DNA of 49,354 nt, filler included, from Catajapyx aquilonaris (lineage: Eukaryota): the NCBI GenBank assembly GCA_000934665.2. It is 2 parts of 2 records of this genome, joined end to end, with 100 filler letters (N's around TTAATTAATTAA, not from the genome) between each part and the next. Parts side by side here need not be neighbours in the genome. Positions count along the whole stretch, not along the records: positions 1 to 24,579 come from JYFJ02005485.1; 1 more part is not named here. One strand, 5' to 3'. The notes below the pieces were generated by a model that ran no database searches, was not told where the DNA came from, and saw nothing but the letters and a program-made list of their open reading frames with translations. A program made the position numbers and the translations under genes. Shown one piece after another: positions 499 to 45,866 of the stretch; the first letter of the stretch is position 1, and the number at the start of each line of letters is the position of its first letter.

Positions 499-891
499 AT
501 GATGCAAGTGGGAAGATTCCAGTGCCCCTGCTGCCCAGACAAGGTGTTCACCAGGAAGATGGACCTGTTTGTACACAGCACCACCCACTCCAAATGGGAC
601 AGGGTCAAGGTGGAGCCAGAGGAGGAGGAACAGGAGGTGAGGGCCACAATCACCTTCACCAAGGAGGAGATGGACAAGCGAGGTTGGGAAGGAATCAGAT
701 GGGCTCTGAAGGTCAAGGAGGAGCCAAGGGAGGAGGAGGAGGAGGAGGAAGAGGGCAACTGCAGCCAGGAAGGCGACTCTGCTGGTGCAGCGGAAGAGGA
801 GGATGGCAGGGAAAGACATGATGCTGATACTGGTTCAGCCGGGGAGAAGGAAGCAGATGGTGGAACTGTACACAAGAGGAGTCAAAACCAG
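499..891 (+). CDS. C2H2 zinc-finger gene A, first coding exon: isolated atypical finger plus acidic linker
   Basis: ATG at 499 follows a pyrimidine-rich acceptor (cttccagttccag). Encodes FQCPCCPDKVFTRKMDLFVHSTTHSKWD and an E-rich tract. Ends at a phase-0 donor CAG|GTGAGA (GT at 892). Confidence 0.8.
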
Positions 892-1859
892 GTGAGAAAG
901 CAGATTGGACATGTTCGCATATTATGGAGGGAGAACTCGGGTGCCAAACGTAAAATGTCAACAGGTTTAAGAATCTTCAGGGATCTGTCCATGCATCCCC
1001 TTGTTTCCCGTAATGTATTGTTAGGCCTATCACACTAAAAGGTGACACTCTGTGTTTTCATAGCTGTGGCGTGGTGAAAATCCAATTTTGAATTTTCGAC
1101 TTTTTGAAGTGGTCAGATAATGTTCCAACAACATTCTGTATATTTTTTTTTTAATGGCAATGGTAAATCATGCTTTATTTTGTGAATCATGCGCTATTCA
1201 TTGAAACCGATTTTCAACAAAATCGTTCTTGCACAGGGATGTGCCGGTGTCACCATGGCTAATTTGTCCTGTTTCCACACCTCATGCAGCAACAATTAGA
1301 ATTAATATTAATTTTAACGTAAAATACCAGTAGCCTACATGATTTTAAACATAGGCTGGAGGAGCATCTAAAATATAGGCATTTTCCCATGTTCAAAAAT
1401 AGTGGCGCAGTGGCTTCGGTCTCCAGGACTGCCTCAGTGTCCTTCTCTTTCAGTATGGCAACGGGAAGAGGGCGACATGGGGCAGGAACATGGCCAGCCA
1501 TTTTGAAATCCTGCGGTTATATATTTTATGTGTGCGAAGCACTGGGTTACAGGGCCACTTGTTGGAGGCATGGAGAGTCTTGCATCAATACTCCAAGCGG
1601 AATTGAGTTGTTTATTTGCCAAAATGGAATGTCATGGGCACACTTCATGTTACATTTTTGAGATAATTTGAGGGGTGTGGGGGGAAAACAAGATAACTGA
1701 CAAAGGAGTAATTTTTCAGGAGAGCGAATTTAAGTTTGCACTCTTGTCACAAATCAGCATAATACCTCAACTTGTAACACTGGGTTTTATTATATTTCCT
1801 GACATTCTGTCTTGTTGTCCATAACTTTGGAACACTTATTCCTGTAATTAATGGATATA

Positions 1860-3594
1860 CAGGGTGTAACAAAAGATTCCGCCGCTACTTCCGCCTTGAT
1901 GACTCATGGATGACGTAATCGTAGGTTTTAAATTCCATATTTCACCATCGGCTCGTGTTAATAGCCATGTGCCTCATATATAATTCGAACCGCATTGAAA
2001 GGCCGCTCCCGCCAGATCCACTGCGCAGCTCCCATAGTCTAGGCCGTGCGTAGCATAACAGCTATAACTATATTTCTGAGGCTACTTGGGATTCATAAAA
2101 AACGTAGCGGTGAATTTCACGGGTCCAAAGAGCGATTTTACGCAAAATATTGCTTAGAAACAAATCTAATTATTAATTCCTAAATTCCCATAATAATTGG
2201 GCTAAGCTTCATACAATCTCTAGCACTGCGCAAAGATTCTTTTCCAATATAGCCACCTTGTAGCCAGCGGAAGATGGCTTCATACGATAAAGTCCGACAA
2301 AGCACTCGAGCATGTGATTTTTGTGGTGAATTCTACTGGTTTTTCTTGTGAATATGTCGAAAACCGCGTTCCTTTAGGACTGATCTAGATTCTTTGCAAA
2401 AAAACAAAAATTTTAAAGTGAGTGTCCGTAAATCATGGACACGTCGCGTCGGGGAGAGGGTTAATAATTTTTAAATTAACATAAGGTGTATATATGTGTA
2501 TAGTAAAACTTCTACGTATAGCCTAAGTCGAATCTCCAGGACCGGAAAAAAACTTCGAGTTATAGAAGATTCTAGTTAGAGAAGTTTGGCATATTTAACG
2601 CACATAACTCTATAAGGAAGCCTACCTTTGTATCCAGCGACGACAGGTGTTCAATACTTAAAAATAACTGTCACTATCACACAATGTTCCTCGCTGTTTT
2701 GTTGCAAAAAAAAACTCCCTTTGGTCATTTGCCTATACGCTTAGATTCAAGGATTCAATTGTCAAAATCGAGTCAAACACTTCTTTCGGTACGTCAGATA
2801 GACGGAGATCAGGACATTGAAGCCTGCCTTTCTGTACATGTGGCCTACTCTCGACCATTTGGCTGGGAAATGAGAAAATTTCGCCAACATGAACTTCGAC
2901 TTAGGGAGACAGCAAAAAGTGCATTGATACTGATCCCATCATAAGGCCCTGCCTGCACTTCGAGTTACGGTCATGGAGAACTTCGAGTTATAGAAATTCG
3001 AGTTAGGGAAGTTTATTTCCTATTATTTTACATTGTGACCAACCAAGCTCATTATTTTATTCCACTTATAGAGAACTTCGACTTAGGAAAGTTCGACTTA
3101 TAGAAGTTTTACTGAGTTCAACATGTATTCAAACAGGGAAGGATGTAAGGTGTGTTAATATAGTCAGTATGCATACCATTTTTCTCTCCAAAGACTGAGC
3201 TACACCTCTTCCCAAAGACCCAAACTGTCCACAAGTGTGAATGTACATCTCGTGTGACAGTTGTTGCTAATTCCTGGTCAACTCTCTTATTAACTGGTCG
3301 TGATTTTTTGGCCTGGCTTGCTTACAGACACTTGATCTTACACCTGGCCCACAATTATCAGACATTGAGAACGAAAGCACTTGCAAGGAATCTTCATGAC
3401 AGACAACACTTGCATTGCACACCTCTCATGAGCACAAAAGCAGAGTCAGTGAGGAATGGACGAGAAAATGAGTCACACAGGGGGTTATTACTTATGAGAG
3501 TTCAATATCTACATAAAAGTGACAGGTAACTTTTAAAGACTGAGAATTTCCTTTGTATAATATTGACTGGGACAGAAACCTTTGTTACACCCTG
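1860..3594. mobile_element. Tc1/mariner-type TIR pair enclosing nested insertions (intron of gene A)
   Basis: TA|CAGGGTGTAACAAA at 1858 and TTTGTTACACCCTG|TA ending at 3596. The two ends could belong to separate insertions. Confidence 0.45.
2501..3114. mobile_element. pogo/Tigger-like MITE
   Basis: Ends TAGTAAAACTTCTA ... TAGAAGTTTTACTG, with many internal TTCGA(G/C)TTA subrepeats. A matching fragment (tcgccaacatgaacttcgacttagggagac) lies near 17117-17160. Confidence 0.7.
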
Positions 3595-4307
3595 TATTAA
3601 ATGGAAGAATACGAAGCGTATAAAAATAGGGGCAGTTATCATGTTTTTCCATATGAAAAAGTGCCTGAAAATATGGCATGTTGGTTATCATCCAGCCCGT
3701 GTTGCCGTCTATAGTGCAGTGCATGATATGTGAACTTTGAGTATACCAAAATGTTTGTCATGTCTTTTACAGAGTTTAGTTCAAAAATGACAAAAATGTC
3801 AGATATCATGTTTTTCCACCACACCCCTCATTTTAGGTAAGAATAATTCAAACCGTCGATGTCGTATGACGACCAACAACTGTGCAGCAGAACGTTCACT
3901 TTTTAGATTGTTTTTTTTTATAAATATCAACTTCGCAGGATAATGTGGCAGCAGGGTTTGAAGTAGCTTTTACTCATGTGTCTGGATAATACCATTGACT
4001 TTTGAACAGAAACTCGTGGCATTCATCAGAAAATGGCGACATTAACTGTACCTGTCAGTAGACAACAACTCAGTAGGTGGCGAAGCAGGCCACAGAGACA
4101 AAAACCTATCAGTACTACGTAAATGCACCAAATGACAAATGTCGGAGAGGATGTGGATGAAGGACACCTGATGGCCCACCCCAAGTGGAATGTCCCAGTA
4201 ATAATATTTCACGTCATGCATTCCTAATTCCAAAATTTTCCCTTCAATAAACCTGCATTTACCTACTGTATATCAAGAATTAATAAGGTCACATTTACCA
4301 ATTTCAG

Positions 4308-5213
4308 AGAGAAGATTCTGAAAAGAAGATGGCGAATGGGATCCAGCCAGACATGGACAAAGGGAGACACTTGGAGGGGAATGCTTGTCAGGGGACATTT
4401 AGTGTCAGGAATGAGTTGAAGAGTCAAAAGGAAATTAATTGCAAAGACAAGCCATTCAGATGCCAGGTTTGCAAGAAGAACTTTAGGCGGTCAGGACATT
4501 TGAATGTACACATGAGGGTTCACACAGGGGACAGGCCATTCACGTGCCAGGTTTGCAATAGAAAGTTTAAACAATCATATGCTCTGACCATACACTCGAT
4601 GATCCGCACAGGCGAGAAGCCATTCACTTGCCAGGTTTGCAATAGAAAGTTTAAACCATCATCTGCTCTGACCAGACACTCGAGGACCCACACAGGCGAG
4701 AAGCCATTCACTTGCCAGGTTTGCAATAGAAAGTTTAATCGATCATCTGCTCTGACCATACACTCGAGGACCCACACAGGCGAGAAGCCATTCACTTGCC
4801 AGGTTTGCAATAGAAAGTTTAAACAATCATCTGCTCTGACCAGACACTCGAGGACCCACACAGGCGAGAAGCCATTCACTTGCCAGGTTTGCAATAGAAA
4901 GTTTAAACATTCATATGCTCTGACCATACACTCGATGATCCACACAGGCGAGAAGCCATTCACTTGCCAGGTTTGCAATAGAAAGTTTAAACAATCATCT
5001 ACTCTGACCAGACACTCGAGGACCCACACAGGCGAGAAGCCATTCACTTGCCAGGTTTGCAAGAAAACCTTTACTCAGACAGGAACTTTGAATTCACACA
5101 TGAGAACTCACACAGGAGAGAAGCCATTCACCTGCCAGGTTTGCAGTAAAAGGTTTGCTCACTCAGCAGGTTTGAAATATCACGAGAGAACACAGCACAC
5201 AAAAGAGAAGTGA
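4308..5213 (+). CDS. C2H2 zinc-finger gene A, terminal exon with 9 tandem Kruppel-type fingers
   Basis: Acceptor atttcag| at 4307 gives phase-0 REDSEKK, in frame with ORF 4329-5213. Nine CxxC-x12-H-x3/4-H units with TGEKP/TGDRP linkers; finger 2 has its last His changed to Arg. TGA at 5211-5213. Confidence 0.92.
   Translation, partial: REDSEKKMANGIQPDMDKGRHLEGNACQGTFSVRNELKSQKEINCKDKPFRCQVCKKNFRRSGHLNVHMRVHTGDRPFTCQVCNRKFKQSYALTIHSMIRTGEKPFTCQVCNRKFKPSSALTRHSRTHTGEKPFTCQVCNRKFNRSSALTIHSRTHTGEKPFTCQVCNRKFKQSSALTRHSRTHTGEKPFTCQVCNRKFKHSYALTIHSMIHTGEKPFTCQVCNRKFKQSSTLTRHSRTHTGEKPFTCQVCKKTFTQTGTLNSHMRTHTGEKPFTCQVCSKRFAHSAGLKYHERTQHTKEK
4521..5060 (+). repeat. 84-bp coding minisatellite (near-identical zinc-finger units)
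   Basis: cacacaggcgagaagccattcacttgccaggtttgcaatagaaagttt recurs every 84 bp. Confidence 0.95.
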
Positions 5214-5701
5214 TTTTGGTGTTTAAGATCTCATTCAAAAGGATGTACATTAGTCCAGTTATTAAACACACCACATCATCTAGAATGGCGACAATGGAAT
5301 TCAGCTACATGTAGTAAAACAAAATAATGACATAGAGAAAGTAACCGCGGCCATCTTTTATTCGAATTGAAAGACCGGCTGTGTGAGCGGCCATGAAACT
5401 AGAGGGAAAGAATTGAGGGAAGTTTTGCAACTAATTTTAAAATGAGGATTTGCTGGGACAACAAGTTAATATACTCAACAAATATTTAACTAACTATTTT
5501 AGTATTCGGATTTGGCATGTCAAAATCAATAGAGGATTCATCGCACGTCATTCGTTCATTTGTTCACTCATTTGACCCTATCCGCCAAGGTCAGGTCTAC
5601 CGGCCAGTAACCGTACGATTTACATTTAGAAATTAGTTCCCTTAAAAAACTACCAAAACCCCTAAATTCTGACAAGTAGCCTACAAGCAACCACACGCCG
5701 C

Positions 5702-15504: not shown

Positions 15505-15717
15505 ATGGATCCAACCTCCAGCACCCTGCACAAATGTCGCTGCTGCCTCCAAACATTCCCCACACACTTGGAGCTTCTGGTGCACAGCTTCACCCACAGC
15601 AAATGGGACGAGATCCACAGGAGAAAGGAGGAGGATGGGCCAGGTGGACCAGGAGATGGCCAAGTGAAGGAAGAAGAAGAGGATGGAGGAGGACTCCATA
15701 TGGAATTCAAAGTTGAG
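15505..15717 (+). CDS. zinc-finger gene B, coding exon 1 (paralogous to gene A exon)
   Basis: Acceptor tttcccccctccag| at 15502, ATG at 15505. Encodes HKCRCCLQTFPTHLELLVHSFTHSKWD plus an acidic tract. 71 codons, donor GAG|GTTGAT. Confidence 0.8.
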
Positions 15718-15805
15718 GTTGATTGCACTTGGATGGTTGTTTGTAGTGTTGGGGACATTGGAATGGTGGTAATGGACTCTTCTAATTATTTCAAATTGTC
15801 TTAAG

Positions 15806-15970
15806 GAGGAAGGCCCAGCTCTGTGGCCACATCACGTCAAAGGAGAGCAGGATGGGCCAGCTGACAGTGAAGTACTAGTTGCCAGGGAAGGCCTTGAAAT
15901 GCCTGGCAACTCACCATTGCAGAGTGGCAACTCAGAGGGAGAGGACAATGCCACCAATGAACCACCTGCT
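15806..15970 (+). CDS. zinc-finger gene B, coding exon 2 (acidic linker)
   Basis: ttaag|GAG...GCT|GTAAGT. 55 open codons EEGPALWPHHVKGE...NEPPA, phase 0/0. Confidence 0.75.
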
Positions 15971-16147
15971 GTAAGTATATTGGGTTTTTAATTCCGGGGT
16001 CGTTTCCGGAAAAAAAGGCCACAGCCGCTTCCTTCCGTCCCTATCCTATCCCACAAAGCTAAGTAAAATGAAAGCAAAGAGTTCCAGTCAAAACAAAATT
16101 GGGATGAACTCCCGCCCTAAAGAGCCCCCAGCTGATAACGGGTATGA

Positions 16148-16213
<66 letters not shown>
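16148..16213. repeat. (ATT)n microsatellite
   Basis: Uninterrupted att run. Confidence 0.97.
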
Positions 16214-16402
16214 TGCACTTGTTTTTTTCCCCCTGTTTGTAGGAGCAACAACTCCCCTTTCCTGCCGTCGAAAAGGAAATTGCTTCCTCACACTACTTTA
16301 TGCATGGGGTGAGTCACACTCTGGGTTGCAATGGGATTTGATGCAGTGAAATTGTTTTCATGATATTATTCAGTAATTAAAACAATGTAATTTAAATTCC
16401 AG

Positions 16403-16536
16403 ATAGAACTGAGGCGCTTTTCTATTGTGGTGGATCCCATTAAATTTTGCCAAAAATGCTCCAAGCCATTTGTGACAAAGAGGAATTGAAGGCACATGAG
16501 AGAGAAGAGCATTTGGAAAGAAGTTATGCAGAAAAG
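16403..16536 (+). CDS. zinc-finger gene B, exon 3 (one finger, 1-nt frameshift)
   Basis: ttccag|ATA...AAG|GTGAGG, 134 nt. Adding one A in acaaagagg yields CQKCSKPFVTKEELKAHEREEH and restores phase 0. Confidence 0.75.
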
Positions 16537-17722
16537 GTGAGGATAAATGACCAAGCATGGATTGGATTAGAGTTGAATTTGGGTTTATCATGGGTAACCC
16601 CATTCCTAATTGTAATTATTAAGGAGTAAGGCGGTGCAGTACCAATAAAATATGGTAACAATGCAAGTCCTTGGCGACGACCTAATCAAACTCGCTTATG
16701 CATGGCAGCATATGGGGATTCGACATGTCTACATTTCTGTGGGCGTACGACTGCAAAAATGGTTCAATCGACACAGAAATCGGATCAAAAAATAGTAGAT
16801 GATCTGGCGCAGGTGCCCTAGGTTGTCTTTTCCCCATTTTGGCCTAAAAGTGACATTTAGGACGAGTTGAAGTGAGTGGAAAACGTCGCTTTCGAAAAGT
16901 CCATTTGAATAACATGCGTGCAGAAAACCGGACACATTTCTTTGGCCGGATGTCCACAATTTTAATGTGATCATGCCGAGTATGGTATCATTGTAAAGGC
17001 CAAACCTTTGCGCAGGTGCCCTAGGTCGTGTTTTTTCAGTTTAATGCCGCGTTTCACCACAAAAAAATGAAAGTTCCCTCAAAAATGCACCTACCATATT
17101 TTTACTATTTCCGTACTCGCCAACATGAACTTCGACTTAGGGAGACTGAAAATGCATTGTTATCTCATTGCAATGTTTTTTGTGCCAAATATGTAGTTGG
17201 CGGTGCCGGCCGTGAAGTTGGCACCGCCAATTTATTTTTTAAATAAAAAGTTTCCGTGATTGGAACAAATTGATCTGGTGGTGGAACAATGTGGAACTCT
17301 CTTGGAACAAACTTACTTTCTGGTTGCGTCTTATAATATAGCAGAACTCTTAGATTGAAACAGGGATTGGGTAAGTTTTTCTCATTCCCAAGGAAATGTA
17401 AGTTGGGCAACGATGACATAGAATGTTGCAAGTCTCATTTATCTTTGCCAAGTAACCTAATTCAAATCATTTCTATAGTATGTAGACGTGACCTTGGAGG
17501 ATAGAGTGAACCTGGAAAACCAGTAGTTGTCGATCATAAAACCTATTTTAATCACACTGAATTCGAATCCGAAAACTGTTTGTCACTATCTTCTTCAGTT
17601 TAATCCCTAATAACTGTCCACAATCAGATAGACTGACAGACAGGTGTTCTATAAGACTTTATTTTTTAAATAAGAAAAAGTCTAAACTGACAATATCCTG
17701 ATATGATTTCCATACTTTTCAG

Positions 17723-19438
17723 GATTTTGCATCACCAAGCAAGAAGGTTAAGAAAGAGCAACCATTACTGGCTTGTGCTGAGTGTGGGAAAACCTTTAGC
17801 AAGCTGAATTATTTAATGATGCATAGGAAAGTGCACAAGGATAAATCTGTCAAGTGTAAACACTGTGGGAGAGTATTTACACATATGGGTAATCTCAGTA
17901 TTCATATTCGTGCAAAGACATGTCAGAAGTCGTTAACGTGTGATCAGTGTGACAGATCATTTAAATGTCACTCAGCCCTGTCTAACCATATGGCAGTTCA
18001 CTCTGATGACAGGCCGTTCAAGTGCGACAAGTGCAGTAAGTCCTTCAAGTATAATTACGGTTTGAAACAACATTTGAAGGACCATACAGGGAAAGGGTTG
18101 ATAGAAGCATTCAATAGAGTGTTTGGAGATGAAATAGGTCATACTGTTGATGAAGCTGAAAAATATCTCCGTTCAGGCAGTGGGAATGATGCGTATATCA
18201 GCTGTCCATATTGTGCACACATTTTGAAATCCAGCACTGGCTTATTGAAACATGTAAGATATTTACACAGAGGTGACAACGCATTTTCTTGTGAATTATG
18301 TTCTGAGAAATTTAATTCTTACCATCATTTGGATACGCACAAGAAAAGAGCTCATGACATTGGGAAAGTGCACACCTGCAAATATTGTGGTAAAGTTTGC
18401 CTCGGCACATCTGCACTTGCTGTACATGAGCGTAGTCACACTGGTGAGAGGCCATTCAAGTGTGATGTGTGTTCAAAGAGCTTGTGTTCAAATAGGTCCC
18501 TGCTGTCTCACAAGCTAGCAGCACATTCTGATGAGACTCCTCATTTCATATGTGATAAATGTGGAAAGGGGTTCAAACTGAGAGAATGGCTGAATGTTCA
18601 CATGAAGAAAGCACATGGTGCACATCACAGGGAGAAGCATGCTTGCAAACACTGCCCTAAAGTCTTCGCTAGTAAATCTAGTTTGCAGGATCATATGAGG
18701 AGGTTTCATGAGGGAGATATGTCCCACATCGGTTGCCCTGATTGCTCATGTAAATGTCCCAGCCGATCGGATCTAATTCGTCACAGACGAAAGTATCATG
18801 GTTATAAGACAAAGGGACATGAGGAACATAAGTGTCCCACTTGCAATCAAGTGCTATTTTCTAAGATCAAGTTTGACATTCATGTGAGACATCACACAGG
18901 AGAGAGACCATTCAAGTGCACTGAATGCAGTAAAGGTTTTATTTCCCGTAGAGGCCTTATTAGACACATGATTTATTTGCATTCTTCACAGCACAGTTGC
19001 CCAGATTGTTCATATAAAACTGGTACGAGATGGTTTCTAAAACGCCACATGCAAAGCATGCATGGCTACAAGTGTAAGGACTATAAATGTTCCATTTGCC
19101 ATATTGTGCTCGTGTCTAAGAGAAAGTTTCACATTCACATGTTACGACATCGCACAGGAGAGAGACCATTCAGGTGCACTGAATGTAGTGAAGGTTTTAT
19201 TTCGCGTCATCATTTGCATAAACACATGTTGACACATTCGCAAGGAAACTTTAGCAAGTGCAGAATTTGCTCCCAGAGTTTCAGTTCTCCTGCAAATTTG
19301 AAAAATCATAAATGTGAACACACAGATGCCGAGCAATTTGAATGTAATTGGTGTGGTAGGGTCCTCAAAAATCGCAACAGTCTTGTAAATCATTTGCAGA
19401 TATGCCAGATTGAAAATGGAGGAAAATGTGTTACTTGA
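17723..19438 (+). CDS. zinc-finger gene B, terminal exon with about 18 C2H2/C2HC fingers
   Basis: Acceptor cttttcag| at 17722 gives DFASPSKKVKKEQPLLACAECGK, in frame with ORF 17816-19438. TGERP linkers present. Confidence 0.92.
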   Translation, partial: DFASPSKKVKKEQPLLACAECGKTFSKLNYLMMHRKVHKDKSVKCKHCGRVFTHMGNLSIHIRAKTCQKSLTCDQCDRSFKCHSALSNHMAVHSDDRPFKCDKCSKSFKYNYGLKQHLKDHTGKGLIEAFNRVFGDEIGHTVDEAEKYLRSGSGNDAYISCPYCAHILKSSTGLLKHVRYLHRGDNAFSCELCSEKFNSYHHLDTHKKRAHDIGKVHTCKYCGKVCLGTSALAVHERSHTGERPFKCDVCSKSLCSNRSLLSHKLAAHSDETPHFICDKCGKGFKLREWLNVHMKKAHGAHHREKHACKHCPKVFASKSSLQDHMRRFHEGDMSHIGCPDCSCKCPSRSDLIRHRRKYHGYKTKGHEEHKCPTCNQVLFSKIKFDIHVRHHTGERPFKCTECSKGFISRRGLIRHMIYLHSSQHSCPDCSYKTGTRWFLKRHMQSMHGYKCKDYKCSICHIVLVSKRKFHIHMLRHRTGERPFRCTECSEGFISRHHLHKHMLTHSQGNFSKCRICSQSFSSPANLKNHKCEHTDAEQFECNWCGRVLKNRNSLVNHLQICQIENGGKCVT

Positions 19439-31254: not shown

Positions 31255-31289
31255 TCAAATGACTATTTCATATTGTTGACTTCAGAAAC

Positions 31290-32858
31290 ATGCCATCTGT
31301 TAAAAAACCGCCTTCGCTTGAATCCATGAGTCTCCAGTGCATCGTCAACTGCATAGCCGACCTCTGCATGGACATTCCTCCAGAACGCTACTTAGACATC
31401 AGACATGTGGTCCACATGATCCCATCGCTTGGTTCCAATGCATACATCCAAGTGTTGCTAGAAACAGTCTCGAAAAGGCCCGGCTACCCCTGCATACGTG
31501 GTTCCTTGCACCACTGCACCACTCGGATTGTACTCACCCAAGGTAAAGTCAGCAGGTACGTCCTTTACGAAGTTCTAAAGCACTTAGGATCGATGCCTGG
31601 ATTGACCGAAGTGGAGGTCACGATGGACGAGAGTGAAGATGAAGCACGAGCTGCATCCCTAGTCGCCGAACATCTGCCAGTTCTCAGGAGGCTGCGAAAG
31701 CTGACACTCCACTGCATTGTCAGGGACGAGGATGAGGTGATTCAGAAGCTGATCAGATACTGTCGCAAGCTTCAAGAGCTGACAATGCTGTGGGGTCTGT
31801 CCAGGCCTCAGCCGATGTCGTTGGCTGACTGCCCTTCACTTCGACGTGTCCACATCATCTACCACGGAAACTCAGCCTACGATGTCATCTACATCCTTAG
31901 CACTGTTCCTCACTTGCAGCGATTGTCGTTTCCATCATACCTCACATACCAGGTGTTGCAAAACTGTGGCTCCTCCGAGGTCAGGAGTCTGGACGCTTCC
32001 GTGGAAGGGACCGAACTTCTGAACATCGTCGCGGCAAGGTTTAAGGAACTGGAGGAAGTGTTCCTGGTACGGTGTGATGACCTGTCCGCACTCAACGACA
32101 TGGAGTGCCTGGATGTCCTGACAATCGCAAAGTCTGAGCCGAAACCCATCAGTGAGGTGGCCAACAAGTGCTTTCCACGTCTGAGAAGCCTCACGTTAAT
32201 GTCGGTGTCCAGCATCTCCTCGGTGTTCAAAAAGGTCAAGCACGACACACTTCCAAGCGTGTCCCAGCTGTTTCTCCAGCAATGCACGGATGTGGACATG
32301 CCTCAAGTTGGCGCATTATTTCCGCACCTTAAACACCTCAGCATGACTGACTGCCATGTGACCAAGCGCACCAAGCGATTAAAACGCAGGCACATCTCAT
32401 TTCGCCACCTCCTGACCCTTAACATATATGACGGAGGTGACTTCATGCAATGGGACCATTTGGCATACGTGTTGGAACACTGCAGAGATCTGGAATTTCT
32501 GAAAATTGTTCAGAAACGCGCGATGGATGATGCCACTGTGAAGAGACTCCTCAGTGCCAACCCGATGACCGAGATGCGTCGTTTCTGCATAGAAAGCTTC
32601 GGATTGACATTTGGCGTCACGTCGGTCATATTCGATTTCTTCGGGCCCAAGCTGCGGGAAGTGCGGATTTACAACCGTCTGTTGCGGATACTTGAAGACG
32701 ATGCAGACCAATTGCGCCGAAGACTGATGCCTTTCGACGTCTACGTGGCTGTGGGCTATGAGGAATTTGGAAGCATGATTGATCGAGATGATGAGTCTAT
32801 GGCCACCTTTTCATGTGGTGAAGTCTTACGGTATGTTTACACCCAACACAAATTGTGA
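31290..32858 (+). CDS. intronless 522-aa protein: N-terminal BC-box-like motif plus RNI-like leucine-rich repeats (putative cullin-RING ligase substrate receptor)
   Basis: Acceptor ttcag| at 31285 then aaacATG. N-terminal PPSLESMSLQCIV and repeated xPxLxxLxL units (CPSLRRVHI, VPHLQRLSF, FPRLRSLTL, FPHLKHLSM). AATAAA at 32997. Confidence 0.8.
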   Translation: MPSVKKPPSLESMSLQCIVNCIADLCMDIPPERYLDIRHVVHMIPSLGSNAYIQVLLETVSKRPGYPCIRGSLHHCTTRIVLTQGKVSRYVLYEVLKHLGSMPGLTEVEVTMDESEDEARAASLVAEHLPVLRRLRKLTLHCIVRDEDEVIQKLIRYCRKLQELTMLWGLSRPQPMSLADCPSLRRVHIIYHGNSAYDVIYILSTVPHLQRLSFPSYLTYQVLQNCGSSEVRSLDASVEGTELLNIVAARFKELEEVFLVRCDDLSALNDMECLDVLTIAKSEPKPISEVANKCFPRLRSLTLMSVSSISSVFKKVKHDTLPSVSQLFLQQCTDVDMPQVGALFPHLKHLSMTDCHVTKRTKRLKRRHISFRHLLTLNIYDGGDFMQWDHLAYVLEHCRDLEFLKIVQKRAMDDATVKRLLSANPMTEMRRFCIESFGLTFGVTSVIFDFFGPKLREVRIYNRLLRILEDDADQLRRRLMPFDVYVAVGYEEFGSMIDRDDESMATFSCGEVLRYVYTQHKL

Positions 32859-39779: not shown

Positions 39780-40200
39780 ACAAAAGTACGAAAGCTGACG
39801 AAAACAAGGAAGATGTGTTCTGCTTCTTGGGAACAGAGATAATCAGAAACCAATATCCATGCCATAGATAACCTTCTTAATCTATGAACCAGGCATAGTT
39901 GTCGTAACAGCCTCAGAAAAAGTCCAGTCCAACATACAAGATTACTTTGCAAACATTCGGCCGGGCAATCATGAAGAAGCCGATACGCGAATGTTCCTAC
40001 ATGCTGCTGATGGCCTTTCCCGCGGTTGTCGAAGTATCCAGATTTGTACGGTTGATACCGATGTTGTTGTTCTGGCTGTGAGTTTCTTTAAATCCTGCAG
40101 CAATGATATCTGATGCATTACCTGCTCTGTAGATGAAGCACGAATCGAGCTCTTTGCAAGAAAAAACAGAGAACTTGAAAATATTCCACCTACAACGGGT
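39780..40200 (+). pseudogene. Academ-like XPG/PIN-domain fragment
   Basis: NHEEADTRMFLHA...VDTDVVVLA and VDEARIELFARKNRELENIPPT. Confidence 0.72.
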
Positions 40201-40211
40201 CTACTGCGGGT

Positions 40212-40601
40212 CAGTTTCCCAATTTCGAGGAGCAGGAGAGGGACGTGCTAGTGGACCTTGTCGTTGACCTCCTGGACATCCTGGAATGTAAGAAGACTGA
40301 CGCCCTCAGCAACAGGGTGAAGGAGGAGAAGTGGGAAGAATTGGCCCGAATGTTTTCCATCCAATCGTCGGGGATAGCACGCGACGTGGTCCAGTTGAGG
40401 CCCTGCTGGGACAACATCAAAAATCGAAGCAGAGGACGAGCCAGGACAAGGTCCCACGGTGGGGGACAGGCGGAGGGCCATACCTCCAGACCAGCAATGA
40501 CCTGGACTCAAAAGTGGTGGGAATGCTGGGAAACAGGGTCACCACTCTCCCTTCACCCAATGACTCTGATACGGCCTGCAGTGGTGAAGGGGAGAACTAA
40601 A
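40212..40601 (+). pseudogene. Myb/SANT-like DNA-binding domain fragment (Harbinger accessory ORF or MSANTD-like), frameshifted
   Basis: PNF...ERDVLVDLV...ILECKKTD...KEEKWEELA...R...QLRPCWDNIK, then GTGGGP in another frame. Donor gtaagt at 40602. Confidence 0.75.
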
Positions 40602-42060
40602 GTAAGTATCATGTGCGAGTTCCGTCAACCTGTCACTGTCCACCTTGCCACACATGTAGAAACAGTGCAGTAATCATGGCAATTATTACAGATCCGAAGA
40701 AGGCTCCGGAATCGGAACTTCAGAACTCAACATTGCCACACAAATTTGCTTTGACTCAAGTCGACTGCAGCGGGATGTCAGAGTCCAGCGAGGTCCCAAG
40801 TAATCAAGCAATGTACACCCTCATCTTCGCTGAACATTTTTGCACGTTTCACACTTTTTTGGCGATGCACACCTTAAAAAGGCATGTGTGCTTCGTGTTT
40901 CCGAAAAGTCAAGGAGGTGCCTTTTGGAATTTCACCCGCTAGAGAGCGACAACGCAGCAGGTGCGAGCTCTGGACCGTACGCTGGTCACTTGTGAGTGCT
41001 ATATTTCCTCAGTGGACTACATGACAGATCTCTGATTTTGGTACCAAAAAATGCAGAATGGCCACAAGATGGCAGAACCACCCATGACTCATTTTCGCCA
41101 AAAGTGGACTTATCCGGTGTTTGCACCAACCCCTTCAATTATTACAAACTTACTTTCACCTCAATGTGAGAGTATTACCTTTGTATCCACATTGAGGGGA
41201 TAAAAAGGTAATACTCTCCTTATTTTTTCATGGAAAATAATAATGCTGACTGGTGCATCGTCATGTCAGTTACTGATGACATTATAGCGACAATACTCAT
41301 GATGCATTTTACCGTCAATATCTACTAGTAACATCCCCATTACGACATTCCATCATACTGTTACGTCATTTAGTTTACGGTTGGCGTTTAATGATAACAT
41401 CTATAGCATCCAGCACGAGCAGCATCAGAAACAAAAATCGCAGCATCCGACATAATGGCGTTATCCCAGAAACACACATTTTGAACTGGCCAGAAAGAAA
41501 TAGATACACGTACGAAATAGCTATTGCTTCACTTCCCACACTATCGTCGTTAATGACTTTGGCGAAGCTTACATTACTGTACTTAATTTTCTAAATTATT
41601 ACTTATGCGTAATTGTACGAGCAATGTCGTATTTTATGGGTTGGTTTTCTTGGAATATGCCAAAACGACGATGACTGTAGGACCGTATATAAAGTTTTAC
41701 CTAAAGTTATGAGATGTTGTATAGGAGAAGTGTCGTACAGTAGTGTATTGTACAGTACGACAATGTTGAGAAAATATATATATAAAAAAACAGAAAATAT
41801 CAGTAGTTTGTTTAGACTGCTGTTACTCTCCCATCCATTAATTACAGTTAGGACATCATAGAATGTCGCTTGTGGTTGTTTTGAATTTGAACACGTGACC
41901 CATTCCCGCGGCCGCTCGAGTCGCCCACCCCACCACCTGCCACCACTCCTCGTTTCCAGGCCTTGAATAACAAAGGCGTCGCGTGGTCAAATCTGTAACT
42001 CTGCAATGTTTGCTCAGTTTTCAGTGCCGTTTCAAGTTTTTGTTGTTATGTGCCTGCATA

Positions 42061-43920
42061 ATGTCTCGTCCGGAATGTGTAATTTGTGACAAACTGTTAG
42101 AAGATGGGACACAGACGAGTGTTGTGAGAGAAAAAGGATTGAAATCTTTCATACAAGCCAGTAAGAAGACAGGATGGTAAGGTTGTAATATTTAAGAGGA
42201 ACACTGAATTTGAAGTTCATGACAAATGCAGGAAGCATTACGTGACAGAGAAGTCTATTGCTGCTTATTTGAAGAGGGCGAAAGAAAATCCTGAATCAAA
42301 ACCGCTTCTGCGTTCCAGTATCCCTGACTTTGCCTTTAAAACTCAGTTTTTTTGTGTGGACAGGAGGTGCCTCTGGACTATGCCAAGAAACAAATCAAAA
42401 AACCTCCCTCAAAACGCAATTTGGTATACCCTGTGAGGAAATTAGCCGTTAGAAAAAATGTGCTCACACTCGCGAGAAATCGAAATGATGAATTTGGGGG
42501 AAGTATAGTACAACGCGTAGAGCCAGTTACTGACTTGGTAGCAGATGCTCAGTACCACTTTCTGTGCATGAAAACTCCTGCACCAGCCCCCACGGACTCT
42601 CCATGAAGTTGGCAGACCCCCTGGAGTTGAGGTGGAAGATGCTATGAAAGCAGTTTACTGTTTTCTAAAAAACAGTGACGAGGAATGTCAATTCACCATG
42701 GAAGAATTGATGGAGCAGATGGAAGGTGATTTCCGTCCGCATCCGAGCACTATCAGAAGACACCTGCTTCAGAAGTACGGCGACGATATTTTGGTTACAA
42801 CAAGCAAACCTTACGTTGTATGTTTCAAAGCCACTGGACACGAAATCATAAATGAATCCTGGCATCGAGATGTTCAAAGGCTGCCAGAAAAAGAAGAAAA
42901 TCGTGCGAAAGTTGAAGCAGCCGCTGCCGTAATTATGGAAGACATGATCGCAAGTATATAATTTGACTAAATACCCCCTTCAGAAATGTTTCTAGATGAA
43001 ACTGAGGATCTCATTCCTGAGACTCTTCGAGTGTTTATGGACGCTGTTGTGCTCAGCAAAAAGCGAGGGGATCTGGAGAAATGGAATAAAAAGTCAGCAG
43101 CCATTGCACATAGCGTGATTAGTGCTATGCGGCCTGCGTCATTCCTCTCACCTCTTCAAATCGGTTTAGCAGCATTTCTTTACAAAAAATATGGTTCTCG
43201 CAAATTCATAGACGTCTTGTCTTCCATGGGGTTTTGTTCCTCGTACAATGAAGCAACTCGCTTTGAAGTGTCGTCAATTATGCGTCCTCCCCTGGCTGTT
43301 AACAAACCAGCACTTTGCCAGATGGTCTTTGACAACGCCGATTTCAACATTCAAACTCTGGATGGACGAAACACATTCCACACAATGGGGGGGGGGGGGN
43401 GGGGGCATCCGATGTGTCACCCCAAAAAAATGTTGTTTTCCCGGGTCAAAAGGTTGCACGGCTTAAGGATGTACCATCAGCACAAATGGTTGGAAGCTGT
43501 ACCACTGAAACATTTTGAAAAGAACAATGATGTCGGTTTAGACGCTATTCACATCAATGACCTAAGTAAGTACATCGTTCCCTGATACTGAGACCATCGT
43601 TCCATCAGTACCACTCTTGCTGTGGCTGTACAGCAAATCTAAAAATCTTCCAGGAATTTATGGATGGAATGGTTTTATGGAGGAAGTAACCAAAGAAGTA
43701 CCTTACCAAACAACATCATTCATACTTCATAGACTGCATGCCAACATTTTATGAATGCGCCTCCCGGGGAATACGACACAATATACACATCATTGTTGTC
43801 TGCCGTTGAATTGACACATTCGTTGGGGCAGCGAACAACTTTCGTCACGTTCGATCAACCTCTCTACCTCAAGGCGCGAGATGTGATAGCCAGTCGTGGG
43901 GGAGACCCTGAGCTACCTGA
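42061..43920 (+). pseudogene. Academ-like transposase N-terminal and catalytic region, multiply frameshifted
   Basis: CVIC...VHDKCRKHY, DAQYH, SPLQIGLA...GSRKFIDVL...GFCSSY, DNADFNIQTLDGRNTFHTMG, VTFDQPLYLKA. Confidence 0.8.
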
Positions 43921-45059: not shown

Positions 45060-45347
45060 CCAAGCAACCGTTCACCCCTCTTGGTTTATTACCGTTCTCC
45101 TGACAGTGACCGCCAGAGCAAGTCTGCAGTCCTACCAACTCCCAAATTGTAACACCGAAGGATATGCTAGCCTACAAAGCCAAACATAAGGTTCCCAGAA
45201 ACCCCTTTGCCACATGTCCACTTTATGACTTCAATAATGCTGCATACTGCACCACTGCTGGATTATTGACATATTACTCAATACCTTTTATGAATACTCA
45301 GCTGATGAACTTCAGCCGATAAAAATTCTCATGAGGCTGAATGGCTC

Positions 45348-45866
45348 ATGAAGACCCAGGTTCTGATTCCCATCTATGACCGGTGCATCATGGAGTTGAG
45401 GTCACGCTTTGGGGGTCCATCTCTTCAGGTCTTCAAGTCCATAAGTTACCTGAACCCGGAGAATTTCAAGGAGATATCTGCAGGTGGCATTCCTAAAGGC
45501 TCTTTGGGACCCTTGTGCAAGCCAGCTGGAGTATATGAGGATGAAGTATTGGCAGAAATGCTGCCCTTTGCGAAATGGAGACGCGCTGGCATTCCAGCAT
45601 GGATATGGTGGAGAGTTTGTTGGCCGTGCAAGGTCGTCAAGGAGGCTCAGCTAGAGAAGCGTGGTCAGAAAATTCTCTTGGCCGAGGCGGAGTGGAATTA
45701 CTTGTCAGACATCGCGGGCAGCTTGTTGCCATCAAAAATCTGCACAAAGTGTCTCCAGGGCGCGCAGCTGACTGCGGGTGACTTCATCGCAGCATGGATG
45801 AGATGCAAGCTGAGATCCTACCAAGGTCGATTCGCACAATTCGAAGTGACCGTGAAAGGCTCATGA
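45348..45866 (+). pseudogene. fused fragments of two hAT transposases
   Basis: IPIYDRCIMELRSRF...LNP (ZMYM1-like), followed by ETRWHSSMDMVE and EWNYL...LLP...TKCLQ...TAGDFIAAW (ZBED-like). Confidence 0.65.

Follow-up and report, generated by a model that had tools for sequence, protein, structure and literature searches.

A two-exon zinc-finger gene from a large lineage-specific family in Catajapyx aquilonaris, with probable selection on its DNA-contact residues

Here, we propose that a zinc-finger array in Catajapyx aquilonaris is the DNA-binding exon of a gene with two coding exons, one of a large lineage-specific family in which a constant module exon is joined to variable fingers. We hold this to be highly probable. 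The array, nine C2H2 finger units of 84 bp (28 residues each) at 4455-5210 on the plus strand, lies in a stretch of 49,354 nucleotides (here called the window), which is two contigs joined at an N gap, so that linkage past 24680 is not established. Diversifying selection on binding specificity in the subfamily to which the window gene belongs is likely, and the best explanation overall, in which we place moderate confidence, is that of a two-exon gene resembling KRAB and FiNZ zinc-finger genes whose array is being retargeted under selection. An earlier note on this DNA had instead framed the array as PRDM9-like.

Gene structure and the N-terminal module

The features on which the argument rests are as follows, with the basis of each in brackets.

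499-891, plus strand: first coding exon, 131 codons, from ATG to CAG/gt in phase 0, with the N-terminal module and an acidic tail (sequence, paralogs)
517-621, plus strand: conserved core of the module, a lone C2H2-type finger (residues 7-30) with HSKWD and VKVE (alignment of copies)
604-723, plus strand: the psi-K-x-E motifs VKVE and VKEE, with an acidic run after each (motif count)
892-4307, plus strand: putative intron of 3416 nt with GT..AG ends and a nested transposon insertion inside (splice ends, paralogs)
4308-5213, plus strand: last exon, with a 49-residue linker, nine C2H2 fingers (F1-F9) and a stop (phase-0 acceptor)
4539-4622, plus strand: F2, in which the last zinc-binding His is replaced by Arg (unit alignment)
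4539-5042, plus strand: F2-F7, a six-unit amplified block of one finger type with alternating I(+6) and R(+6) lineages (clade in tree)
15508-15648, plus strand: the module of another, distantly related member of the family, also on this contig (profile match, E=2e-9)

We infer the splice between 891 and 4308 from sites conserved among paralogs. The ATG context and the phase-0 donor of the first exon are kept in eight of the ten closest paralogs, and an array lies 1.3-4.3 kb downstream of the module exon on the same strand in eight of ten as well. The acceptor context at 4308 is the same in three paralogs (C5955, C5293 and C7867), and others have open frames with the same beginning as the array exon. 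Both frames of the window gene are open, that of the array running from 4287 to 5213. The contig begins only 498 nt upstream of the ATG; in the paralogs this region shows frame-breaking length differences and a stop, and so is taken to be untranslated. Six or more of the close paralogs have, ahead of the ATG exon, a decayed second module-like exon with the same donor (L089:781-1107, L092:169-591, L097:340-612 and equivalents in C5293, C7452 and C5955), frameshifted in some of them, the expected place of which here falls before the start of the window contig. Within the intron, an insertion at about 1669-3830, which we take to be Sola-like, has terminal inverted repeats beginning GAGGGG and is flanked by what seems to be a 4-base target duplication, ATTT; three paralogs have the empty site. 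Nested in it at 1857-3597 is an element with inverted repeats flanked by TA (presumably Tc1/mariner-like), and a very high-copy repeat occupies about 2424-3131.

The earlier note had seen no KRAB, SET or ZAD domain. Domain searches agree, giving no such match on either exon, but an accessory part does exist in the form of the module of exon 499-891. Six of its residues (C9, C12, F17, L23, H26 and H30) are invariant in all 30 diverse module copies, and against Pfam it yields C2H2 matches below threshold only, none reaching a cut-off. An AlphaFold2 model gives a strand-strand-helix finger with pLDDT 74-82 over residues 1-30, dropping to about 50 after them, which suggests a lone finger with a disordered remainder; a fold search returned weak C2H2 matches only, none at E<=0.001. 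The psi-K-x-E motif is the SUMO consensus, and two such motifs are present in 20 of 21 aligned members, compared with 0.21 per shuffled sequence; 27 of 30 diverse cores have one or more. Given a pN/pS of 0.13 among close paralogs and about 0.25-0.4 within other subfamilies, the module is, by this sequence measure, under purifying selection.

The module exon has at least 150 matches in the genome by protein search. Three such searches gave at least 150, 112 and 101 places, with a union by hand count of at least about 200, five of which match the acidic part only. In two clusters, on contigs C53 and C337, every module is followed by a same-strand frame of 10-19 fingers in head-to-tail order (8/8 and 10/10, together 18/18), and a wider count found this pairing at 30 of 50 places hand-chosen from the at least 150, a selection that excludes its use as a rate. 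In C6763 and C3301 the module is itself repeated in tandem inside a single frame, with three and two units respectively (loci L070:278-874 and L069:331-702). In protein libraries that hold few animal proteins, no outside homologue of the module appeared at E<=0.001 among 7999 candidates, and the three matches at E<=1 among 8000 were all ordinary multi-finger proteins. A profile search reached 4276 proteins at E<=0.001, the best 150 of which included none with an HSKWD-type tail, and an Atlas search returned generic single-finger clusters only. A literature search, mostly at the level of titles and the starts of abstracts, found no published description. The module thus appears to be an undescribed front-end part common to about 200 related zinc-finger genes.

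The second member of the family in the window is of the subfamily that forms the clusters on C53 and C337. Its finger exon is at 17724-19438, with diverged fingers in a frame of 578 codons, and a small finger-like exon near 16403-16540 is out of frame, the whole (15508-19438) being possibly disrupted.

History of the array and selection at contact codons

The earlier note had described F3-F7, by eye, as identical at silent sites and different mostly at helix positions -1, +2, +3 and +6, and alignment of the 84-bp units confirms both statements. F3-F7 are 1-6 nt apart in pairwise comparison with no synonymous difference. Their nine distinct changes are all non-synonymous (9/9), and six fall at contact codons, where the residues are exactly those given before (-1, P/R/Q/H/Q; +2, S/Y; +3, A/T; +6, R/I); the remaining three are K/N at -2, and R/M and T/I between the histidines. 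The alternation I,R,I,R,I,R at position +6 across F2-F7 and the recurrence of the Y..I..MI variant four fingers apart, in F2 and F6, were also read correctly. F2 adds one synonymous change to the F3-F7 set. Homogenisation, which the note had attributed to the array as such, applies to F2-F7 and fails for F1, F8 and F9, which are 21-38 nt from the core and limit the homogeneous fingers to six of nine. F2 is, from its lost ligand, probably a non-binding finger, and internal units lacking a zinc ligand also occur in 10 of 112 other arrays; the Pro at -1 of F3 is seen in none of 1016 background fingers. Together the two have the look of damage or error.

How unusual is this pattern? The lack of synonymous changes among nine is not significant under neutrality (P=0.09, or P=0.07 with the local mutation spectrum). 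Six of nine changes at four contact codons give P=0.0004 against all codons, P=0.01 against non-structural codons and P=0.0006 in a simulation that leaves contact codons neutral and puts the others under purifying selection at the background level, P values to be read in the knowledge that the array was singled out for its extreme look. With the genome-wide contact excess as the null, P is 0.02-0.06, and the window array is therefore an extreme draw from a general pattern. F3-F7, with a mean difference of 3.7 nt, form the most homogeneous five-finger block of the 103 arrays with at least five fingers, the best of the other 102 standing at 6.0 nt; the background is a sample of 126 arrays from chosen loci, and the genome has many more (6136 candidates, 150 of which were scored).

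F2-F7 form one clade with support 0.99 in a tree of 70 subfamily fingers. Several paralogs hold between one and three copies of the finger type from which they arose. Of the 11 variant codons in F2-F7, 10 do not occur in 11 fingers of this type from outside the block. Single-unit changes account for seven of these variants; the other four are shared, and only two of the four lie at contact codons. The mean unit difference is 3.75 nt at lag 2 and 2.5 nt at lag 4, compared with 4.8, 5.3 and 7 nt at lags 1, 3 and 5, which bears out the higher-order duplication that had been suspected. No four-gamete conflict was found among 10 variable sites of F2-F7, so that recent tandem duplication suffices and within-array conversion is not needed; the idea that concerted evolution continues inside the array thus finds no support. 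A recent two-finger and then four-finger block duplication from one finger type explains the block, which was amplified six-fold by unequal exchange in steps of two and four fingers. Taken alone, the array is an extreme yet ordinary case of known zinc-finger evolution. Other recent multi-finger block duplications are seen in arrays at L140, L144, L146 and L008, for instance in C1603, where a block of four fingers is repeated, and in C4553, where the block has three.

The number or order of the F2-F7 units, or their single-unit differences, might instead be products of short-read assembly of a near-perfect repeat, a danger that the earlier note had raised. The assembly is indeed fragmented (20,583 contigs). 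Read support was sought in assembled contigs of public runs, which by their nature cannot show unit number or allele variation, and among the contigs listed none runs across F3-F6 or reaches the codon in F2 that has changed from His. A stretch at 4409-4574, which takes in F1 and the beginning of F2 together with its silent change, is matched by contigs of sample S1, which may be the source of the assembly. A second sample, from a second study, has contigs that agree at every base with 4949-5062 and 5033-5351, confirming F7 (Thr at +3) and the F7-F8 junction with no variation there. Moreover, errors would not favour contact codons or yield a tree-compatible alternation, and the selection signal in the paralogs is independent of the window array. 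We consider an assembly artefact highly improbable.

That signal comes from the nine closest paralogs with the window gene excluded, where the ratio of non-synonymous to synonymous change at contact codons is 3.46 (p=6e-7) or 2.97 (p=3e-9) at two distance cut-offs for closely related fingers. These ratios are counts on minimum-spanning pairs rather than likelihood tests, and exchange between copies breaks tree assumptions. In the same paralogs the ratio is 0-0.27 at positions +1 and +5 and 0.06-0.08 at structural positions. By the same method the C53 and C337 clusters give 0.64 and 1.16, with no excess; hence the contact excess is specific to the window subfamily, and the method does not always return values above 1. 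Young within-array duplicates in 126 arrays give 1.8-2.2, and 92 arrays chosen by family search alone give 1.64 (p=0.054, closest pairs) and 2.11 (p=4e-12). The contact-residue diversification described by the earlier note is thus seen both in the six changes here and in a ratio of about 3 in nine paralogs.

An account by birth and death without positive selection has to be weighed against this. It would have a redundant, perhaps decaying paralog whose array expanded by slippage, with contact codons unconstrained and the scaffold purged of change, the most extreme array having been picked. The His-to-Arg change of F2, the Pro at -1 of F3, the modest P of 0.07-0.09 for 0/9 synonymous changes alone and the middling rank of the whole array in the diversity statistic considered below all suit it, as does the state of the close relatives, four of 11 of which look broken: C4036 has a frameshift in exon 1, C5821 a truncated exon and a stop, C7867 frameshifts, and C2045 no intact array after the module. 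Given the broken F2, the Pro at -1 and these four relatives, the window copy may itself be decaying. Relaxation, however, predicts a contact ratio near 1, and the nine paralogs show about 3 with +1 and +5 held fixed; the simulation with neutral contact codons gave P=0.0006; and both frames of the window gene are open, with a module under purifying selection. We therefore judge birth and death alone to be unlikely, and favour selection on specificity in the window subfamily.

The module exon has a different history from its surroundings. At fourfold sites in 499-720, 7 of 661 comparisons differ (1.1%) over all pairs of the eight intact close genes, compared with 1918 of 9631 intron sites (19.9%) in the same genes, the pairs not being independent in either count. 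The window gene and C274 differ at three of 393 exon bases and at 15-18% of intron sites, and the tree of the last 132 exon bases is incompatible with that of the 270 intron bases that follow, each being rejected by the other (AU p=6e-27 and 2e-4). Across the wider family, silent sites of the module vary (pS 0.33-0.67). The module exon is thus homogenised, and gene conversion between paralogs is the simplest cause. RNA structure as the reason for silent-site conservation was ruled out (z=+1.5, no Rfam match, silent sites varying family-wide). Third-position GC, at 0.53 for the array exon and 0.39 for the finger exon next to it, reaches 0.78 in 499-720; this could come from GC-biased conversion, but is confounded by amino-acid composition. 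Finger 9 (5127-5207) differs at 0 of 81 bases from the last finger of paralog C7452, the other segments of which are 6-13% different from the window gene, and is likely another conversion tract.

Comparison with PRDM9 and with expanded zinc-finger families

PRDM9 is defined by KRAB, SSXRD and PR/SET domains ahead of its array, as described in the available parts of two reports (PMC12047536; PMC5519329). Neither exon of the window gene has a match to PR/SET, KRAB or SSXRD. The PRDM9 diversity statistic (PMC5519329, part available), computed here with positions -1,2,3,6 and -1,3,6 and with our array sample as background, is 0.31-0.34 for the whole array (rank 34-60 of 127) and 0.57-0.66 for the core block, and the best five fingers reach 0.657 (rank 3 of 103, two other arrays being higher). 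With no SET, PR, KRAB or SSXRD match, a family of about 200 and a mid-ranked whole array, PRDM9 membership is ruled out, and the PRDM9 framing of the earlier note must be given up.

A looser form of that idea would have the gene be a piece of PRDM9, or else a hotspot specifier without SET that brings in a methyltransferase in trans. The core block is within the range of true PRDM9 arrays (PMC5519329 Table 1, in the part available), full-length PRDM9 is recorded in termites (PMC12047536, part available), and the nearness of the contig start leaves little sequence ahead of the ATG. However, the 8 PR and 28 SET places in the genome all lie off the window contig (C3228) and off the ten closest paralog contigs, KRAB and SSXRD have no match genome-wide (in searches run without a positive control), and the sequence ahead of the ATG does not code in frame. 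The gene also has some 200 relatives in its family, and two other arrays exceed its best-five-finger value. We find this form barely credible. Like a PRDM9 array, F2-F7 consist of 84-bp units that are almost identical and vary chiefly at contact residues; unlike PRDM9, the window gene lacks KRAB-SSXRD-SET and belongs to a multigene family, and its array has three of nine fingers diverged, is not top-ranked and gives no within-array conversion signal. PRDM9-like finger blocks thus arise in ordinary expanding families, and the signature alone does not identify PRDM9. At four PR-domain loci (L061-L068: C1578, C99, C7660 and C360), one of which looks to us like Blimp-1, no uniform finger array follows in the parts examined.

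The zf-AD domain has no match on either exon or on the module, and the nine zf-AD places of the genome are on other contigs. ZAD spans about 75 residues and has four cysteines. The window family resembles insect ZAD-ZNF genes in bearing a zinc-binding N-terminal module on lineage-expanded finger genes, and differs in that its module is a single C2H2-type finger.

The likeness to young KRAB-ZFP arrays drawn by the earlier note has fared better than its PRDM9 framing, and gains from the module exon and the paralog contact ratios. An effector exon and a single array exon stand in tandem clusters, with splicing read from conserved sites, and contact residues are under apparent selection in young paralogs (ratio about 3 in nine paralogs, by counting), the KRAB domain itself having no match on either exon, in the module or genome-wide. 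As the available part of PMC2604467 describes them, tetrapod KRAB genes share with the window family paralogs in tandem, whole fingers gained or lost, selection at -1, 3 and 6 and short conversion tracts between paralogs, with homogenisation of the module exon here far stronger than the 'short regions' reported there. The same source gives positive selection at -1, 3 and 6 in vertebrate paralogs and none found in fly and mosquito expansions, from which the contact selection in the present arthropod subfamily differs (PMC2604467).

Cyprinid FiNZ-ZNF genes, in the part of PMC10547256 available, likewise carry a short acidic module at the N terminus, encoded by a separate exon ahead of the array exon, and have hundreds of clustered copies, with base-contact selection in some clades only. 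The FiNZ domain is there cyprinid-specific and without similarity to known domains, a 28-residue sequence, in contrast to the C2H2-type finger with HSKWD found here in a genome with ZAD genes; the module is probably set apart from FiNZ, given that published description and its zinc ligands. TE repression has been tested for FiNZ-ZNF genes (PMC10547256), and the window family is known here from sequence alone. Hemipteran ZF271-like/APEZ genes are similar in their lineage-specific tandem-finger expansion, clusters, pseudogenes and array shuffling, and are described in the available part of PMC6444547 as having no domain besides the arrays, unlike the window family with its conserved N-terminal module. 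The best reading is that of a KRAB/FiNZ-like lineage-specific family, one subfamily of which appears to be retargeting. Comparable families are to be expected across animals, and dozens of uncharacterised families are spoken of in the available part of PMC10547256.

Proposed role of the family

What might the role of such a family be? The array would bind DNA, with new specificities arising by finger duplication and contact-codon change and being favoured in the window subfamily. Fast-changing targets would drive this selection, transposons or other repeats being the likeliest. The lone finger may be a protein-contact module and the two psi-K-x-E sites may be SUMOylated and recruit silencing machinery, so that a constant module would link all members to one partner and many specificities would feed one effector route. 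Sequence exchange between paralogs keeps the module exon near-identical while introns and arrays diverge. By analogy, the partner route is probably SUMO-dependent silencing as for the fly corepressor, for which SUMO-dependent recruitment of SetDB1 is described in the available part of PMC10672805.

That the targets are repeats and the outcome repression is a tentative suggestion, to which we give somewhat less than even weight. A target motif predicted with a rough recognition code is not enriched in the genome (49 matches, compared with 102 for the reversed control); many matches are simple GTA/GTG repeats, and the 20 of the 49 loci that were compared had no repeat in common. With so rough a code, the missing enrichment is no argument against repeats as targets. 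An acidic tail would suit an activator as well, and the same family under the same selection could consist of ordinary regulators or insulator-type factors with host targets and a module that activates or dimerises. The acidic tails and the failure of the rough motif to find a repeat target both favour this alternative. So does the case of Hemiptera, where repeat content and ZF271-like expansion are reported to be unlinked (PMC6444547, part available). Turnover, broken copies and contact ratios near 3 nevertheless fit conflict better, and the conserved SUMO-consensus sites lean towards repression; a role as host regulators is in our judgement decidedly unlikely.

More speculatively, the family could be a counterpart of the KRAB system invented independently in arthropods, in which a recycled, non-DNA-binding finger and two SUMO sites would feed about 200 arrays into one silencing pathway and, in a subfamily in conflict with a repeat, paralog conversion would lock the effector exon while amplification and contact selection retarget the array. 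As a complete scheme we consider this unlikely.

These findings bear on how animals without KRAB and KAP-1 use large zinc-finger repertoires, and the partners of insect zinc-finger expansions have been asked for (PMC6444547, in the part available). What the family provides is a well-delimited module shorter than 50 residues, two consensus lysines, and a subfamily of some dozen genes in which the signal of selection is clear, in contrast to its sister clusters.

Elsewhere in the window, on the second contig, the single-frame 531-codon protein at 31263-32858 is leucine-rich-repeat and F-box-like, a homologue search with this frame having found none. At 40179-40673, 42572-43585 and 45309-45866 there are a Myb/SANT-like frame and frames that by eye resemble transposase fragments, with no Pfam match.
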